A stretch of 64,000 nucleotides of DNA from Escherichia phage vB_EcoM_R5505: sequence record MK373786.1; one strand, 5' to 3'. Under the pieces are notes generated by a model that was not told where the DNA came from, made no database searches, and worked only from the letters and a program-made list of their open reading frames with translations. A program made the position numbers and the translations under genes. Positions 52,396 to 61,980 of the stretch are shown piece after piece (position 1 is the first letter of the stretch; every line of letters starts with the position of its first letter).

Positions 52396-55300
52396 ATGGC
52401 CGAGATTAAAAGAAAGTTCAGAGCAGAAGATGGTCTGGACGCAGGTGGTGATAAAATAATCAACGTAGCTTTAGCTGATCGTACCGTAGGAACTGACGGT
52501 GTTAACGTTGATTACTTAATTCAAGAAAACACAGTTCAACAATATGATCCAACTCGTGGATATTTAAAAGATTTTGTAATCATTTATGATAACCGCTTTT
52601 GGGCTGCTATAAATGATATTCCAAAACCAGCAGGAGCTTTTAATAGCGGACGCTGGAGAGCATTACGTACCGATGCTAACTGGATTACAGTCTCATCTGG
52701 TTCATATCAATTAAAATCCGGTGAAGCAATTTCGGTTAACACCGCAGCTGGAAATGACATCACGTTTACTTTACCATCTTCTCCAATTGATGGCGATACT
52801 ATCGTTCTCCAAGATATTGGAGGAAAACCTGGAGTTAACCAAGTTTTAATTGTAGCTCCAGTGCAAAGTATTGTAAACTTTAGAGGTGAACAGGTACGTT
52901 CAGTACTAATGACTCATCCAAAGTCACAGCTAGTTTTAATTTTTAGTAATCGTCTGTGGCAAATGTATGTAGCTGATTATAGTAGAGAAGCTGTAGTTGT
53001 AACACCAGCGAATACTTATCAAGCGCAATCTAATGATTTTATCGTGCGTAGATTTACTTCTGCTGCACCAATTAATGTCAAACTTCCAAGATTTGCTAAT
53101 CATGGCGATATTATTAATTTCGTTGATTTAGATAAACTGAATCCACTTTATCATACAATTGTTACTACATACGATGAAACGACTTCAGTACAAGAAGTTG
53201 GAACTCATTCCATTGAAGGCCGTACATCGATTGACGGTTTCTTGATGTTCGATGATAATGAGAAATTGTGGAGATTGTTTGACGGTGACAGTAAAGCACG
53301 TTTACGCATTATAACGACTAATTCTAATATTCGTCCAAATGAAGAAGTCATGGTGTTTGGAGCGAATAACGGAACAACTCAAACAATTGAGCTTCAGCTT
53401 CCTACTGATATTTCTGTTGGTGATACTGTTAAAATTTCCATGAATTACATGAGAAAAGGACAAACAGTTAAAATCAAGGCTGCGGGCGAAGATAAAATTG
53501 CTTCTTCAGTTCAATTACTGCAATTCCCAAAACGCTCAGAATATCCGCCTGAAGCTGAGTGGGTTACAGTCCAAGAATTAGTTTTTAATGGTGAAACTAA
53601 TTATGTTCCGGTTTTACAACTTGCTTATATAGAAGATTCTGATGGAAAATACTGGGTTGTACAGCAAAACGTTCCAACTGTAGAAAGAGTTGATTCTTTA
53701 AATGATTCTACTAGAGCAAGATTAGGCGTAATTGCTTTAGCTACACAAGCTCAAGCTAACGTCGATTTAGAAAATTCTCCTCAAAAAGAATTAGCAATTA
53801 CTCCAGAAACGTTAGCTAATCGTACTGCTACAGAAACTCGTAGAGGTATTGCAAGAATAGCAACTACTGCTCAAGTGAATCAGAACACCACATTCTCTTT
53901 TGCTGATGATATTATCATCACTCCTAAAAAGCTGAATGAAAGAACTGCTACAGAAACTCGCAGAGGTGTCGCAGAAATTGCTACACAGCAGGAAACTAAT
54001 ACAGGTACTGATGATACTACAATCATTACTCCTAAAAAGCTTCAAGCTCGCCAAGGTTCTGAGTCATTATCTGGTATTGTAACTTTTGTATCTACTGCAG
54101 GTGCTACTCCAGCTTCTAGCCGTGAATTAAATGGTACGAATGTTTATAATAAAAACACTAATAATTTAGTTGTTTCACCTAAAGCTTTGGATCAGTATAA
54201 AGCTACTCCAACGCAGCAAGGTGCAGTAATTTTAGCAGTTGAAAGTGAAGTAATTGCTGGACAAAGTCAGGAAGGATGGGCAAATGCTGTTGTAACACCA
54301 GAAACGTTACATAAAAAGACATCAACTGATGACAGAATTGGTTTAATTGAAATTGCTACGCAAAGTGAAGTTAATACAGGAACTGATTATACTCGTGCAG
54401 TCACTCCTAAAACTTTAAATGACCGTAGAGCAACTGAAAGTTTAAGTGGTATAGCTGAAATTGCTACACAAGTTGAATTCGACGCAGGCGTCGACGATAC
54501 TCGTATCTCTACACCATTAAAAATTAAAACCAGATTTAATAGTACTGATCGTACTTCTGTTGTTGCTCTATCTGGATTAGTTGAATCAGGAACTCTCTGG
54601 GACCATTATACCCTTAATATTCTTGAAGCAAATGAGACACAGCGTGGTACACTTCGTGTAGCTACACAGGTTGAAGCTGCTGCAGGAACATTAGATAATG
54701 TTTTAATAACTCCTAAAAAGCTTTTAGGTACTAAATCTACCGAATCGCAAGAAGGTGTTATTAAAGTTGCAACTCAGTCTGAAACTGTGACTGGAACGTC
54801 AGCAAATACTGCTGTATCTCCAAAAAATTTAAAATGGATTGTGCAGAGTGAACCTACTTGGGCAGCTACTACTGCGATAAGAGGTTTTGTTAAAACTTCA
54901 TCTGGTTCAATTACATTCGTTGGTAATGATACAGTCGGTTCTACCCAAGATTTAGAACTGTATGAGAAAAATAGCTATGCGGTATCACCATATGAATTAA
55001 ACCGTGTATTAGCAAATTATTTGCCATTAAAAGCAAAAGCTGTAGATAGTAATTTATTGGATGGTCTAGATTCATCTCAGTTCATTCGTAGGGATATTGC
55101 ACAGACGGTTAATGGTTCACTAACCTTAACCCAACAAACGAATCTGAGTGCCCCTCTTGTATCATCTAGTACTGCTACGTTTGGTGGATCAGTTTCGGCA
55201 AATAGTACATTAACTATTTCTAATACTGGAACGGCAACTCGTCTGATTTTTGAGAAAGGACCTCAAACTGGAACTAACCCAGCACAGACGATGACTATCA

Positions 55301-56265
55301 GAGTTTGGGGAAATCAGTTTGGTGGCGGATCAGATACAACACGTTCTACTGTATTTGAAGTTGGTGATGAAACATCTAATCACTTTTATTCTCAACGTAA
55401 TAAAGCTGGTAATATTACGTTTAGCATTAATGGTACTGTGATGCCAATAAATGTTAACGCTTCCGGTTCATTGAATGCGAATGGCGTAGCAACATTTGGT
55501 AGTTCAGTTACAGCCAATGGTGAATTCATTAGCAAGTCTGCAAATGCTTTCAGAGCAATAAACGGTGATTATGGATTCTTTATCAGGAATGATGGCGGCA
55601 GTACATATTTTATGCTTACTGCATCGGGTGATCAGACTGGCGGATTTAATGGATTACGTCCTTTAGCTATTAATAATGCATCTGGCCAAGTAACGATTGG
55701 TGAAAGCTTAATCATTGCCAAAGGTGCTACTATAAATTCAGGTGGTTTGACTGTTAACTCGAGAATTCGTTCTCAGGGTACTAAAACATCTGATTTATAT
55801 ACCCGTGCACCAACATCTGATACGGTAGGATTCTGGTCAATTGATATTAACGATTCAGCTACTTATAACCAATTCCCGGGTTATTTTAAAATGGTTGAAA
55901 AAACTAATGAAGTGACTGGGCTTCCATACTTAGAACGTGGAGAAGAAGTTAAATCTCCTGGTACACTGACTCAGTTTGGTAATACACTTGATTCACTTTA
56001 CCAAGATTGGATTACTTATCCAACAACTCCAGAAGCGCGTACCACTCGCTGGACACGTACATGGCAGAAAACCAAAAACTCTTGGTCAAGTTTTGTTCAG
56101 GTATTTGACGGAGGTAACCCTCCTCAACCATCTGACATCGGTGCTTTACCATCTGATAATGCTACAATGGGCAATCTTACTATTCGTGATTTCTTACGAA
56201 TTGGTAATGTTCGCATTATTCCTGACCCAGTGAATAAAACTGTTAAATTTGAATGGGTTGAATAA
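52396..56265 (+). CDS. 34: Long tail fiber proximal subunit
   Basis: 1289 aa as T4 gp34; internal repeats of the TPKKL...ATETRRG(I/V)A.IAT type; late promoter at 52354-52361. Confidence 0.95.
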   Translation: MAEIKRKFRAEDGLDAGGDKIINVALADRTVGTDGVNVDYLIQENTVQQYDPTRGYLKDFVIIYDNRFWAAINDIPKPAGAFNSGRWRALRTDANWITVSSGSYQLKSGEAISVNTAAGNDITFTLPSSPIDGDTIVLQDIGGKPGVNQVLIVAPVQSIVNFRGEQVRSVLMTHPKSQLVLIFSNRLWQMYVADYSREAVVVTPANTYQAQSNDFIVRRFTSAAPINVKLPRFANHGDIINFVDLDKLNPLYHTIVTTYDETTSVQEVGTHSIEGRTSIDGFLMFDDNEKLWRLFDGDSKARLRIITTNSNIRPNEEVMVFGANNGTTQTIELQLPTDISVGDTVKISMNYMRKGQTVKIKAAGEDKIASSVQLLQFPKRSEYPPEAEWVTVQELVFNGETNYVPVLQLAYIEDSDGKYWVVQQNVPTVERVDSLNDSTRARLGVIALATQAQANVDLENSPQKELAITPETLANRTATETRRGIARIATTAQVNQNTTFSFADDIIITPKKLNERTATETRRGVAEIATQQETNTGTDDTTIITPKKLQARQGSESLSGIVTFVSTAGATPASSRELNGTNVYNKNTNNLVVSPKALDQYKATPTQQGAVILAVESEVIAGQSQEGWANAVVTPETLHKKTSTDDRIGLIEIATQSEVNTGTDYTRAVTPKTLNDRRATESLSGIAEIATQVEFDAGVDDTRISTPLKIKTRFNSTDRTSVVALSGLVESGTLWDHYTLNILEANETQRGTLRVATQVEAAAGTLDNVLITPKKLLGTKSTESQEGVIKVATQSETVTGTSANTAVSPKNLKWIVQSEPTWAATTAIRGFVKTSSGSITFVGNDTVGSTQDLELYEKNSYAVSPYELNRVLANYLPLKAKAVDSNLLDGLDSSQFIRRDIAQTVNGSLTLTQQTNLSAPLVSSSTATFGGSVSANSTLTISNTGTATRLIFEKGPQTGTNPAQTMTIRVWGNQFGGGSDTTRSTVFEVGDETSNHFYSQRNKAGNITFSINGTVMPINVNASGSLNANGVATFGSSVTANGEFISKSANAFRAINGDYGFFIRNDGGSTYFMLTASGDQTGGFNGLRPLAINNASGQVTIGESLIIAKGATINSGGLTVNSRIRSQGTKTSDLYTRAPTSDTVGFWSIDINDSATYNQFPGYFKMVEKTNEVTGLPYLERGEEVKSPGTLTQFGNTLDSLYQDWITYPTTPEARTTRWTRTWQKTKNSWSSFVQVFDGGNPPQPSDIGALPSDNATMGNLTIRDFLRIGNVRIIPDPVNKTVKFEWVE

Positions 56266-56273
56266 GAGGTATT

Positions 56274-57389
56274 ATGGAAAAATTTATGGCAGAGTTTGGA
56301 CAAGGATATGTCCAAACGCCATTTTTATCGGAAAGCAATTCAGTAAGATATAAAATAAGTATAGCGGGTTCTTGCCCGCTTTCTACAGCAGGACCATACG
56401 TTAAATTTCAGGATAATCCTGTAGGAAGTCAAACATTTAGCGCAGGCCTTCATTTAAGAGTTTTTGACCCTTCTACAGGAGCATTAGTTGATAGTAAGTC
56501 ATATGCTTTTTCGACTTCAAATGATACTACATCAGCTGCTTTTGTTAGTTTCATGAATTCTTTGACGAATAATAGAATTGTTGCTATATTAACTAGCGGA
56601 AAGGTTAATTTTCCTCCTGAAGTAGTATCTTGGTTAAGAACCGCAGGAACGTCTGCTTTTCCATCTGACTCTATATTGTCAAGATTCGACGTATCATATG
56701 CTGCTTTTTATACTTCTTCTAAAAGAGCTATCGCATTAGAGCATGTTAAACTGAGTAATAGAAAAAGCACAGATGATTATCAAACTATTTTAGATGTTGT
56801 ATTTGACAGTTTAGAAGACGTCGGAGCTACCGGGTTTCCAAGAAGAACGTATGAAAGCGTTGAGCAATTCATGTCAGCGGTTGGTGGAACTAATAACGAA
56901 ATTGCGCGTCTACCAACTTCAGCTACTATAAGTAAATTATCTGATTATAATTTAATTCCTGGCGATGTTCTTTATCTTAAAGCTCAGTTATATGCTGATG
57001 CCGATTTACTTGCTCTTGGAACTACAAATATATCTATCCGTTTTTATAATGCATCAAATGGATATATTTCCTCGACACAAGCTGAATTTACCGGGCAAGC
57101 TGGATCTTGGGAATTAAAGGAAGATTATGTAGTTGTTCCAGAAAACGCGGTAGGATTTACGATATACGCACAAAGAACTGCACAAGCAGGTCAAGGTGGC
57201 ATGAGAAATTTAAGCTTTTCTGAAGTATCAAGAAACGGCGGTATTTCAAAACCCGCTGAATTTGGCGTCAATGGTATTCGTGTTAATTATATCTGTGAAT
57301 CTGCTTCACCTCCGGATATAATGGTACTTCCTACACAAGCATCGTCTAAAACTGGTAAAGTGTTTGGGCAAGAATTTAGAGAAGTATAA
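56274..57389 (+). CDS. 35: Long tail fiber hinge connector
   Basis: 371 aa (T4 gp35 about 372). Confidence 0.9.
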   Translation: MEKFMAEFGQGYVQTPFLSESNSVRYKISIAGSCPLSTAGPYVKFQDNPVGSQTFSAGLHLRVFDPSTGALVDSKSYAFSTSNDTTSAAFVSFMNSLTNNRIVAILTSGKVNFPPEVVSWLRTAGTSAFPSDSILSRFDVSYAAFYTSSKRAIALEHVKLSNRKSTDDYQTILDVVFDSLEDVGATGFPRRTYESVEQFMSAVGGTNNEIARLPTSATISKLSDYNLIPGDVLYLKAQLYADADLLALGTTNISIRFYNASNGYISSTQAEFTGQAGSWELKEDYVVVPENAVGFTIYAQRTAQAGQGGMRNLSFSEVSRNGGISKPAEFGVNGIRVNYICESASPPDIMVLPTQASSKTGKVFGQEFREV

Positions 57390-57451: not shown

Positions 57452-58117
57452 ATGGCTGATTTAAAAGTAGGTTCAACAACCGGAGGCTCTGTCATTTGGC
57501 ATCAAGGAAATTTTCCATTGAATCCAGCCGGTGACGATGTACTCTATAAATCATTTAAAATATATTCAGAATATAATAAACCACAAGCTGCTGATAACGA
57601 TTTCGTTTCTAAAGCTAATGGTGGTACTTATGCATCAAAGGTAACATTTAACGGTGGAGTTCAAGTTCCGTATGCTGTAAACAACACAAACCCATGCGGT
57701 GTTTATCCAGGTAACGGTGATAATGCTACTTTTGCTGTAGCAAATATCGATATTGTTTCGTGGAATGGTATTGGTTTTAAATCATCACAAGGTTCAGCAG
57801 CTCGAACTGTTGTAATTAATGCACGTAATGGTGATATTAGTACAAAAGGCGTTGTGTCGGCAGCAGGTCAAGTAAGAAGTGATGCGGCTGCTCCTATAGC
57901 AGCGAATGACCTTACTAGAAAGGACTATGTTGATGGAGCAATAAATACTGTTACGGCAAATGCAAACTCTAGGGTGCTACGGTCTGGTGACACCATGATA
58001 GGTAATTTAACAGCGCCAAACTTTTTCTCGCAGAATCCTGCATCTCAACCTTCACACGTTCCACGATTTGACCAAATCGTAATTAAGGATTCTGTTCAAG
58101 ATTTCGGCTATTATTAA
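57452..58117 (+). CDS. 36: Long tail fiber distal subunit (small)
   Basis: 221 aa as T4 gp36; late promoter at 57421-57428. Confidence 0.9.
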
Positions 58118-58125
58118 GAGGACTT

Positions 58126-61100
58126 ATGGCTACTTTAAAACAAATACAATTTAAAAGAAGCAAAACCGCAGGTGCACGTCCTGCTGCTTCAGTATTAGCC
58201 GAAGGTGAATTGGCTATAAACTTAAAAGATAGAACAATTTTTACTAAAGATGATTCAGGAAATATCATTGACTTAAGCATTTCTGCTGGTGGTAATATCA
58301 GTGGAAATATCACTCAAACTGGTGATTATACACAGACTGGAAAATTTAATTTAATTGGTCCGCAAATTGTAGCAAGCGGTGGATATATTGAGTTTAATTA
58401 TCGTACTACTGGAAGTGGGGCTTGGTCCGGTCAACATACTGCGAAAGCTCCAATTTTTGTAGATTTAAGCTCAGCTACTTCCACATCTGAATATAATCCT
58501 ATAATTAAACAGCGCTTTAAAGATGGAACTTTTTCATTAGGTACTTTAGTTTCTGAAGGTTCGTTGAAGATTCATTATATCAATGAATCTGGCGATTCGA
58601 AATATTGGACGTTTCGACGTGACGGCGGATTTACTGTTGACGGTGGAGGTTTAGCAGTATCAGGAGGTAGTATAACTACATCTGGAAATATTGCAGCTAT
58701 TGGAAATATTACTTCGCCTCAGATTAATACTAAAAATATTATTTTAGATACAAAAGCATTTGGACAATACGATTCGCAATCATTAGTTCAATATGTTTAT
58801 CCTGGAACAGGTGAAGAAAATGGTATAAACTATCTTCGTAAAGTTCGAGCTAAATCAGGCGGAACCATTTACCATGAATTAGCTTCTGCGCAAACCGGAA
58901 AAAGTGATGAACTTTCTTGGTGGACTGGTAATACAGCCGTTAATAAACAAATGGGTCTTCGTAATGATGGGGCTTTAGTATTACGACGCTCACTCGCAAT
59001 TGGTACAATTACAACAGATGAAAACATTAATAACTACGGCTCCGCTGGAGCAATGGGCGAATGTTATATAGTTATCGGTGATGCATCAACAGGCTTATCA
59101 TACAAAAAAACTGGAGTATATGATTTAGTTGCTAGTGGTCTTTCTTTAGCATCTATTACTCCTGATAGTTTCCGTAGTACCCGTAAAGCGATTTTTGGTC
59201 GTTCCGAGGACCAAGGTACAACATGGATTATGCCTGGAACCAACGCCGCGTTTTTATCGGTTCAAACACAAGCTGATGAAAACACTGCTGGAGACGGCCA
59301 GACGCATATTGGCTATAACTCAGGCGGAAAAATGAACCACTATTTCCGTGGTAAAGGCAAAACTAATATTAATACTCAAGAAGGCATGGAAGTTAACCCG
59401 GGTATTTTGAAATTGGTAACTGGCTCTAATAATGTAATGTTTTATGCTGATGGCGGTATTACATCTGTTAAGCAGCTTTCAATATATAATGGCATATATT
59501 TAGCAGCTAATAATTCTACTGCTGGGCTAACATTCGCTCCAACTACTACAATTGATGGTACTAAGCAAATTTTGTGGGAAGGCGGTACTCGTGCTGGGCA
59601 GAATAAAAGCTATGTAACTGTTAAAGCATGGGGTAATTCATTTAACGCATCTGGCGATCGTAATCGTGAAACGGTTTTTGAAGTAGCTGATGGACAAGGA
59701 TATTATTTTTATTCACAGCGTGTGGCTCCAAGTGGCTCTGAAACTACTGGGCCTGTTGTAACCCAGTTCAATGGACAAGTTAATGCTAGAGGAAGTATTA
59801 TTACTGACGGAAGTTTTAAAGTTAATGGATTAAGCACTTTAGTCGGTAATGTTACCATGTCTAATGGTTTGTTTGTCCAAGGTGGTTCTTCTATTACTGG
59901 ACAAGTAAAAATTGGTGGAACTGCTGATGCATTAAGAATTTGGAATGCCGAATACGGTGCTATTTTCCGTCGCTCAGAAACAGCATTACATATTATCCCG
60001 ACTCCTAAAGATGCCGGTGAAAGTGGTGGAATAAGTAATCTCCGCCCACTTAGTATTAGTCTTAATAATGGTATGGTACAAATGCGCCATTCTGTTACGT
60101 TAGGCGATGATGGCGCTGGAGGTAATATGATTACTGTGGACAACGATACCAAACTTGTTGTTGTTACTAGTAATAGTCGCATTTCTCCTAATTACCGTAT
60201 GCAGGTAGGACAAGCAGCTTATATTGATGCTGAATGTACTGACACAGTTCGCCCGGCTGGTGCAGGGTCTTTTGCTTCACAAAATAATGAAAACGTTCGT
60301 GCTCCATTCTATATGAATATTAATCGTACAGATACAAGTACTTACGTTCCTATTTTGAAACAACGATATGTCCAAGGAAACAGTTGTTATTCTCTGGGAA
60401 CTCTAATTAACGGCGGTAACTTCAGAGTTCATTATCATGAAGGCGGCGATGGCGGTTCGACTGGCGCTATTATAAAGGATTTAGGTTGGGAATTTAACAA
60501 AAATGGTGATTTTATATCTCCTAAGCGTGTTTCTGCTGGTGGTTCAGTTTATTTAGGTACAGACGGCAATATTACAGGTGGTTCTGGCAATTTTGCTAAT
60601 TTAAACAGTACAATTGAATCACTTAAAACCGATATTGTATCGAGTTACCCAATCGGTGCTCCTATTCCATGGCCAACGGATACTCCTCCTGACGGTTACG
60701 CTATTATGGAAGGCCAGACTTTTGATAAGTCTGCATACCCAAAATTGGCTATGGCTTACCCATCTGGCGTAATTCCAGATATGCGCGGGCAAACTATTAA
60801 AGGTAAACCAAGTGGTCGAGCTGTATTAAGCGCAGAAGCCGATGGTGTTAAGGCTCATAGCCATAGTGCATCGGCTTCAAGTACTGACTTGGGTACTAAA
60901 ACTACGTCGAGTTTTGATTATGGTACTAAGACGACAAGTAGCTTTGACTATGGCACTAAGACTAGCAATACCACAGGTAACCACTCTCATACTGTAAGCG
61001 GTACTACGAGTTCTGCTGGTGCACACCAACATGCGCGCTCAGGTCCTCAGATACAAGCCGGCATACCCAATAACATATTCTATGACGGATATAATAGTGT

Positions 61101-61401
61101 AGGTGCAAACGCCAACGCTAAATTCACTGGAACCGTGAACGGTGCTACTGCAGGGTCGAATATAGCCAAAACTTCTTCAGACGGTGCTCATACTCATACT
61201 TGGTCTGGTACTACAAGCACTACAGGTAACCATGCTCACACAGTAGGTATTGGTGCTCATACCCATACTGTAGGTATCGGTGCTCATACCCACACGGTAG
61301 CAATTGGCTCGCATGGTCATACTATCACTGTAAATAGTACAGGTAATACAGAAAACACGGTTAAAAACATTGCTTTTAACTATATCGTTCGTTTAGCATA
61401 A
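58126..61401 (+). CDS. 37: Long tail fiber distal subunit with receptor-binding tip
   Basis: 1091 aa; C-terminal His-box array ([33 protein letters not shown] x2, SHGHTI) and terminal ...[11 protein letters not shown] as in T4-type gp37. Confidence 0.92.
60892..60951 (+). repeat. Tandem 30-bp repeat in gene 37 encoding [10 protein letters not shown] twice
   Basis: The two units encode the same decapeptide but differ at about 9 of 30 nucleotides; a third diverged unit follows. Confidence 0.7.
61245..61298 (+). repeat. Tandem 27-bp repeat in gene 37 encoding GIGAHTHTV twice (His-box)
   Basis: ggtattggtgctcatacccatactgta / ggtatcggtgctcatacccacacggta. Confidence 0.7.
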
Positions 61402-61428
61402 GGAGAGGGGCTTCGGCCCCTTCTAAAT
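61402..61428 (+). promoter_or_regulatory. Gene 38 translation-initiation region: SD (AGGAGA) separated from AUG by a stable hairpin
   Basis: AGGAGA at 61402-61407, GGGGCTTCGGCCCC hairpin 61407-61420, ATG at 61429. Confidence 0.6.
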
Positions 61429-61980
61429 ATGAAAATATATCATTATTATTTTGACACTAAAGAATTTTACAAAGAAGAAAATTACAAACCGGTTAAAGGC
61501 CTCGGTCTTCCTGCTCATTCAACAATTAAAAAACCTTTAGAACCTAAAGAAGGATATGCAGTTGTATTTGATGAACGTACTCAGGATTGGATTTATGAAG
61601 AAGACCATCGCGGAAAACGAGCATGGACTTTTAATAAAGAAGAAATTTTTATAAGTGAAATTGGAAGCCCGGTTGGTATAACTTTTGATGAGCCTGGCGA
61701 ATTTGATATATGGACTGATGACGGTTGGAAAGAAGACGAAACATATAAGCGAGTTTTAATTCGTAATAGAAAAATTGAAGAATTATATAAAGAGTTCCAA
61801 GTTTTAAATAATATGATTGAAGCTTCTGTCGCCAATAAAAAGGAAAAATTTTATTATAAAAACCTTAAGCGGTTCTTTGCTCTTTTAGAAAAGCATGAGC
61901 ATTTAGGTGGTGAATTCCCTTCATGGCCTGAAAAAGAACGGAAACCTTGGTATAAGCGTTTATTCAAGCATTACGTATAA
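61429..61980 (+). CDS. 38: Tail fiber assembly chaperone (T4 type, not T2-type adhesin)
   Basis: 183 aa; matches remembered T4 gp38 (MKIYHYYFDTKEFYKEENYKP...). Confidence 0.9.
   Translation: MKIYHYYFDTKEFYKEENYKPVKGLGLPAHSTIKKPLEPKEGYAVVFDERTQDWIYEEDHRGKRAWTFNKEEIFISEIGSPVGITFDEPGEFDIWTDDGWKEDETYKRVLIRNRKIEELYKEFQVLNNMIEASVANKKEKFYYKNLKRFFALLEKHEHLGGEFPSWPEKERKPWYKRLFKHYV

Follow-up and report, generated by a model that had tools for sequence, protein, structure and literature searches.

The TuIb-type receptor-binding tip of gp37 in Escherichia phage vB_EcoM_R5505 and the proposed pairing of its repeat units

The end of the long tail fibre of Escherichia phage vB_EcoM_R5505 is a TuIb-type allele of the Tequatrovirus gp37 receptor-binding tip, and as such it is already known, real but ordinary. 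It is encoded by gene 37 in the stretch of 64,000 nucleotides analysed here (record MK373786.1, hereafter the window). The best overall explanation, to which we give a probability of about 0.9, is a T4-like tip of the TuIb type with an extra needle layer, directed at OmpC and assisted by a gp38 chaperone, in which the choice of receptor resides in the variable head and not in the repeats. The only point beyond annotation is a rule by which the repeat units of the needle occur in matching numbers on its two strands.

The tail-fibre module and identity of the tip

The T4-type long-tail-fibre module forms the end of the window, with holin t downstream followed by asiA on the opposite strand. Both the order of the tail-fibre genes and their products are as in T4 and its relatives (Table 1). 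In a 24-kb comparison, the best deposited match is Escherichia phage vB_Eco_EH2 (98.9%), followed by Tequatrovirus phages that belong to the teqdroes and teqhad groups.

Table 1. Features of the long-tail-fibre module and of the gp37 tip, in window positions
Feature	Position (strand)	Size or residues	Remarks
gp34	52396-56265		long-tail-fibre module, T4-type
gp35	56274-57389		long-tail-fibre module, T4-type
gp36	57452-58117		long-tail-fibre module, T4-type
Gene 37, long tail fibre distal subunit	58126-61401 (+)	1091 aa	ORF
Phage tail collar domain	60655-60798 (+)	aa 844-891	Pfam PF07484, E=2.3e-11; aligns to 2XGF collar
HxH motif 1 (AHSHS)	60856-60864 (+)		start of outgoing needle strand; H111/H113 invariant in homologue alignment
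Decapeptide unit 1, [10 protein letters not shown]	60892-60921 (+)	aa 923-932	outgoing strand
Decapeptide unit 2, [10 protein letters not shown]	60922-60951 (+)	aa 933-942	extra unit compared with T4
HxH motifs 2 (NHSHT) and 3 (AHQHA)	60982-61032 (+)		14 residues apart; end of outgoing strand
Variable head domain	61033-61188 (+)	aa 970-1021	presumed receptor-contact region
HxH motifs 4 (AHTHT) and 5 (NHAHT)	61189-61239 (+)		14 residues apart; start of returning strand
Nonapeptide unit 1, GIGAHTHTV	61246-61272 (+)	aa 1041-1049	HxH motif 6
Nonapeptide unit 2, GIGAHTHTV	61273-61299 (+)	aa 1050-1058	HxH motif 7
Nonapeptide unit 3, AIGSHGHTI	61300-61326 (+)		HxH motif 8; degenerate
Conserved C-terminal segment ([24 protein letters not shown]) and stop	61327-61401 (+)		identical in T4 and TuIb
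GGGGC-UUCG-GCCCC hairpin, between genes 37 and 38	61407-61420 (+)		stem in MFE and centroid structures
Gene 38, T4-type tail-fibre assembly chaperone	61429-61980 (+)	183 aa	181/183 identical to T4 gp38

Over its 702 nt, the tip is 100% identical to ten deposited records, including those of Ozark, teqhad, teqdroes, Bas44 (AdolfPortmann) and Bas41 (FriedrichZschokke). It is 99.1% identical to X55191, the gene 37 fragment of TuIb linked to Montag, Hashemolhosseini and Henning (1990), and the 6 nt that differ give rise to three amino acid substitutions (F1000I, T1003S and N1005S), each of which lies in the head. Only one synonymous nucleotide separates the complete gene from that of Bas44, with no difference over the 1091 residues of the protein. 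Compared with Bas41, the whole gene is 99.5% identical, and compared with Bas40, 13 nt and two amino acids differ over the gene. With the gp37 of these four phages it shares the allele, both duplications, all eight HxH motifs, the type of gp38 and the OmpC receptor; nothing of substance distinguishes them, the window genome being a separate isolate. The novelty suggested by the first-pass annotation is thus lost, since alignment finds one characterised tip that is identical (Bas44) and another that is three residues away (TuIb). The gp37 of TuIa (X55190) likewise has the needle architecture, both duplications and eight HxH motifs, but its head differs at many positions and its reported receptor is OmpF.

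Over its last 291 residues, the protein matches the solved structure of the T4 gp37 tip (2XGF) with an E-value of 3.6e-96 (query residues 14-291 against chain residues 2-242), and together with the PF07484 collar this agrees with the earlier assignment of the region as the receptor-binding tip of gp37. The only gaps in the alignment are the 10-residue unit, the 9-residue unit and the head. Both tips have the collar-needle-head layout, the HxH metal sites, a gp38 chaperone and OmpC as receptor on K-12, and their collar-proximal and C-terminal segments are identical. In contrast, T4 has one decapeptide, one GIGAHTHTV, seven HxH motifs and a shorter head of unrelated sequence, and it can also take E. 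coli B LPS without OmpC. As had been stated in the first-pass annotation, the tip is longer than and different from that of T4: the needle gains 10 and 9 residues, and the HxH motifs flanking the head are 55 residues apart against 37 in T4 (18 more).

At full length, gp37 is 63% identical to its T4 counterpart. The shaft is a mosaic relative to T4, with the N-terminal 50 residues and the middle conserved, residues 60-200 (window 58300-58750) almost unrelated, and an 11-residue insertion near residue 659 (about 60080-60115, residues 650-670).

A T4-type gp38 chaperone instead of a T2-type adhesin had also been proposed, and rightly so. The product of gene 38 is 99% identical to T4 gp38 and is annotated as a chaperone in the Bas44 and Bas40 records, while a Pfam search of gp38 found no family. 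The distal fibre of the T2/T6 type has the same locus position and long-tail-fibre role, but its gp38 is an adhesin of about 260 residues that caps a cleaved gp37, whereas in the window gp38 has the length of the T4-type chaperone and gp37 carries the adhesin. A fibre of the T2/T6 type was therefore rejected, given a gp38 of 183 residues with such identity to the T4 protein.

The hairpin listed in Table 1 lies in the gap that separates the stop codon of gene 37 (61399-61401) from the start of gene 38 (61429), and a z-score of -2.08 was obtained for folding of a 56-nt stretch. It is a stable tetraloop hairpin such as occurs in T4 intercistronic regions, and may have a role in transcript stability or in the translation of gene 38.

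Predicted needle architecture and the pairing of units

Eight HxH motifs follow the collar, at residues 911, 953, 967, 1022, 1036, 1045, 1054 and 1063, with three on the outgoing and five on the returning strand. The dense HxH array with a duplicated GIGAHTHTV described beforehand is therefore found as such, with two copies at 61246-61299 and one motif more than the seven of T4. Among 66 aligned homologues, five motifs have invariant histidines and a sixth has nearly invariant ones, and the last HxH begins 29 residues before the C-terminus in nearly all homologues. The two decapeptide units stand in tandem (60892-60951) and are followed by a partial third unit, GTK. Tandem Repeats Finder reports the decapeptide array at 60885-60964 (period 30, 2.7 copies) and the nonapeptide array at 61237-61300 (period 27, 2.4 copies); the latter carries a repeat_region annotation in teqhad and relatives.

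In the T4 tip, the chain doubles back at the head, yielding a six-stranded needle in which seven iron ions are held by di-histidine motifs. By analogy, each chain of the trimer in the window phage would run out along the needle, form the head and double back to give a six-stranded needle, the core of which would be stitched by metal ions, each held by an HxH of all three chains. The 10-residue unit, free of histidines, would lie on the outgoing strand, and the 9-residue GIGAHTHTV, with one HxH, on the returning strand. The two duplications would then be the two halves of one extra needle layer. Compared with T4, the needle is predicted to be one layer longer, by nine to ten residues per strand, with an eighth metal (iron) site. 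As a folding chaperone of the T4 type, gp38 stays outside the fibre. The additional iron site, the increase in needle length and the pairing of 10-mer and 9-mer in space are all deduced from the counting rule given below and from the T4 topology. AlphaFold2 was run on the 291-residue tip as a monomer with the 66-sequence alignment, and gave a mean pLDDT of 52.8 with almost no secondary structure. This poor result can be ascribed to the nature of the tip, an intertwined and metal-dependent trimer.

The HxH spacings after the collar were measured in 115 close homologues (top hits) and in 128 representatives of 50%-identity clusters. The spacing between HxH1 and HxH2 equals 32+10k residues and is paired with 2+k terminal 9-residue HxH spacings, with k ranging from 0 to 4. 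This rule holds in 242 of the 243 homologues (127/128 cluster representatives and 115/115 top hits). Among the cluster representatives, 81 have k=0, 39 have k=1, five have k=2, and k=3 and k=4 occur once each. The lone exception among the 128, P0214, lacks the outgoing-strand HxH beside the head and has spacings of 69, 9 and 9; judged from its sequence, this may be a naturally occurring tip that has one metal site less. The 14-residue HxH spacings are also equal in number before and after the head in every homologue (0/0, 1/1 or 2/2). In total, the homologues range from none to four extra 10+9 units and from none to two 14+14 pairs. In proteins with higher k, the extra outgoing units are recognisable variants of the decapeptide and the returning ones are xIGxHxHTV variants.

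The agreement in k between the strands was 127/127, compared with a maximum of 83 in 10,000 shuffles. On a tree built from the conserved framework, k changes about 21 times by parsimony, a count that is approximate due to recombination, and each time on both strands. Based on these patterns, the two duplications seem to be coupled as a single structural unit. Part of this coupling could come from the inheritance of whole needle-head cassettes rather than from selection at each event.

Three to five units of the decapeptide type, or two 14+14 pairs, are present in some homologues (P0166, P0213, P0181, P0195 and P0041), which reach up to 10 HxH motifs. The unit inserted in P0181 and P0195 consists of a duplicated stretch of 20 residues (TDLGTK...FDYG.K....).

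Homologous tips are also found on side tail fibres of the lambda Stf type, in lambdoid prophages and other enterobacterial phages, a family described in PMC9659904. These have the same collar-needle-head organisation and both kinds of paired units, but differ in their N-terminal shafts, heads, unit numbers (1 to 5) and lambda-type Tfa chaperones. Several database proteins ending in the same tip are named tape measure protein, terminase large subunit, head maturation protease or short-chain fatty acid transporter. Misannotation, or gene calls in prophage regions that are fused or incomplete, would seem to account for these names.

The needle of this tip family might be a modular ruler built of strictly paired units (10+9 and 14+14), under a rule that has perhaps not been stated before. 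We propose this tentatively and with some doubt. A cryo-EM paper already remarks that the number of di-histidines may scale with needle length, so that the idea of paired units at most sharpens what is known.

Age of the duplications and selection on the repeats

The decapeptide units 1 and 2 differ at 8 of their 30 nucleotides, all of them synonymous and one of them a TCG/AGT serine codon switch. The first-pass annotation was right that the same peptide is encoded twice in tandem, while its count of about nine differences was one too high. The two GIGAHTHTV units differ at 3 of 27 nucleotides. Unit 2 is only one nucleotide away from the single unit of T4, suggesting from the sequence comparison that unit 1 is the one that is extra in relation to T4.

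When sets of eight substitutions were drawn at random 300,000 times, the decapeptide was never preserved. When the copies of the window, T4, TuIa and TuIb are taken together, eight in number, they comprise five distinct DNA versions that all encode the same decapeptide. The copies in the window are 8 nt from each other and each is 5 nt from the single T4 copy. They are about as distant mutually as each is from that of T4, and therefore the duplication is old. That the peptides are the same although their codons have diverged reflects an old duplication, common to TuIa and TuIb, under purifying selection on a packed structural strand. Selection on the peptide, as argued beforehand, is thus upheld by the random sets and by the synonymous nature of all differences, but selection for the repeat as such is not: the constraint is the ordinary structural one on a needle strand. 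Moreover, in Bas40 a G to A change at the equivalent of window position 60946 produces D941N inside decapeptide unit 2. Bas40 nevertheless uses OmpC, so that at least this one substitution is tolerated in the repeated peptide, which is not absolutely fixed.

Short in-frame tandem repeats are a classic outcome of assembly error or polymerase slippage, and the tandem units could in principle have arisen in this way, as a duplication introduced during sequencing or assembly or through very recent slippage. We consider this extremely unlikely. Neither process yields the divergence observed between the copies of both arrays (8/30 and 3/27 nt), and a full-length ORF reads in frame through both arrays. 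In addition, at least 20 phage records with 99% identity or more show the same arrangement, X55191 among them, as do both of the records, for TuIa and TuIb, that accompany the 1990 paper. An assembly duplication, which had been named as a possible objection to the repeat, is thereby dismissed.

A different explanation is that the repeats are mainly devices for recombination and variation, either as conserved 'His-box' DNA for the exchange of heads between related phages or by expansion and contraction that alters host range, and not a fixed layer of the needle. Heads of many lengths do occur within the same conserved flanks, and homologues have anywhere from 1 to 5 units. Tetart et al., in 1996 and 1998, reportedly described host-range mutants of T4 that carried duplications here, as well as recombination at conserved motifs. 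However, the copy number is fixed within the lineage of the window tip, and the synonymous divergence of the copies lowers recombination between them. The strict matching of unit numbers between the strands also points to a structural constraint. As the main function of the repeats, we regard this explanation as unlikely while still giving it some weight; it complements the structural reading, with its extra needle layer, rather than competing with it. A preprint on phage contingency loci deals with a subject outside of which gene 37 falls.

Receptor and significance

According to the table of the BASEL collection, OmpC is the experimentally determined primary receptor of Bas40, Bas41 and Bas44, and for Bas40 the dependence on OmpC was confirmed by ompC complementation (PMC8594841). 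TuIb is given as a user of OmpC and TuIa as a user of OmpF (PMC9659904). As judged by protein identity, the primary receptor for this exact gp37 is OmpC, the assignment being made via Bas44, another isolate with an identical protein. T4 also uses OmpC on E. coli K-12, and E. coli B LPS is usable for it when OmpC is absent. Since gp37 is identical to that of an OmpC phage and T4 itself uses OmpC on K-12, a longer and different tip does not amount to a different protein receptor. The distinct specificity that the first-pass annotation had drawn from the divergence of the tip is therefore not retained.

The same evidence bears on the broader idea that the tip represents a new allele whose receptor specificity would differ from those of T4 and of every characterised phage. 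The head is strongly unlike that of T4, as seen in the spacing of its flanking HxH motifs (55 against 37 residues), and the needle is longer, both of which would fit such an allele. On the other hand, the protein equals that of Bas44 and the tip DNA that of Bas41, both OmpC users; TuIb, only three residues away, is an OmpC phage; and T4 is likewise on OmpC in K-12. A new specificity is thus very improbable. A smaller difference from T4 is possible, by comparison with related phages, in the use of E. coli B LPS. In the BASEL text, several other OmpC- or Tsx-dependent T-even phages are described as failing on the B strain REL606, which is without OmpC, and by implication this may extend to Bas41 and Bas44. 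Contact with the receptor is presumed to be made by the variable head, by analogy with T4 mutagenesis.

Gene 37 of the window can be annotated with confidence as a TuIb-type, OmpC-directed gp37 accompanied by a T4-type gp38, and the finding has little further weight for the window itself. The strict pairing of the strands offers a compact and testable rule for how such a tip can change in length without loss of its fold. If not stated before, the paired-unit ruler would offer a simple principle by which receptor-binding needles could be made longer or shorter by design, and it predicts that insertions or deletions on a single strand are lethal. The pairing rule could also aid the engineering of host range, by head swaps or by resizing of the needle.
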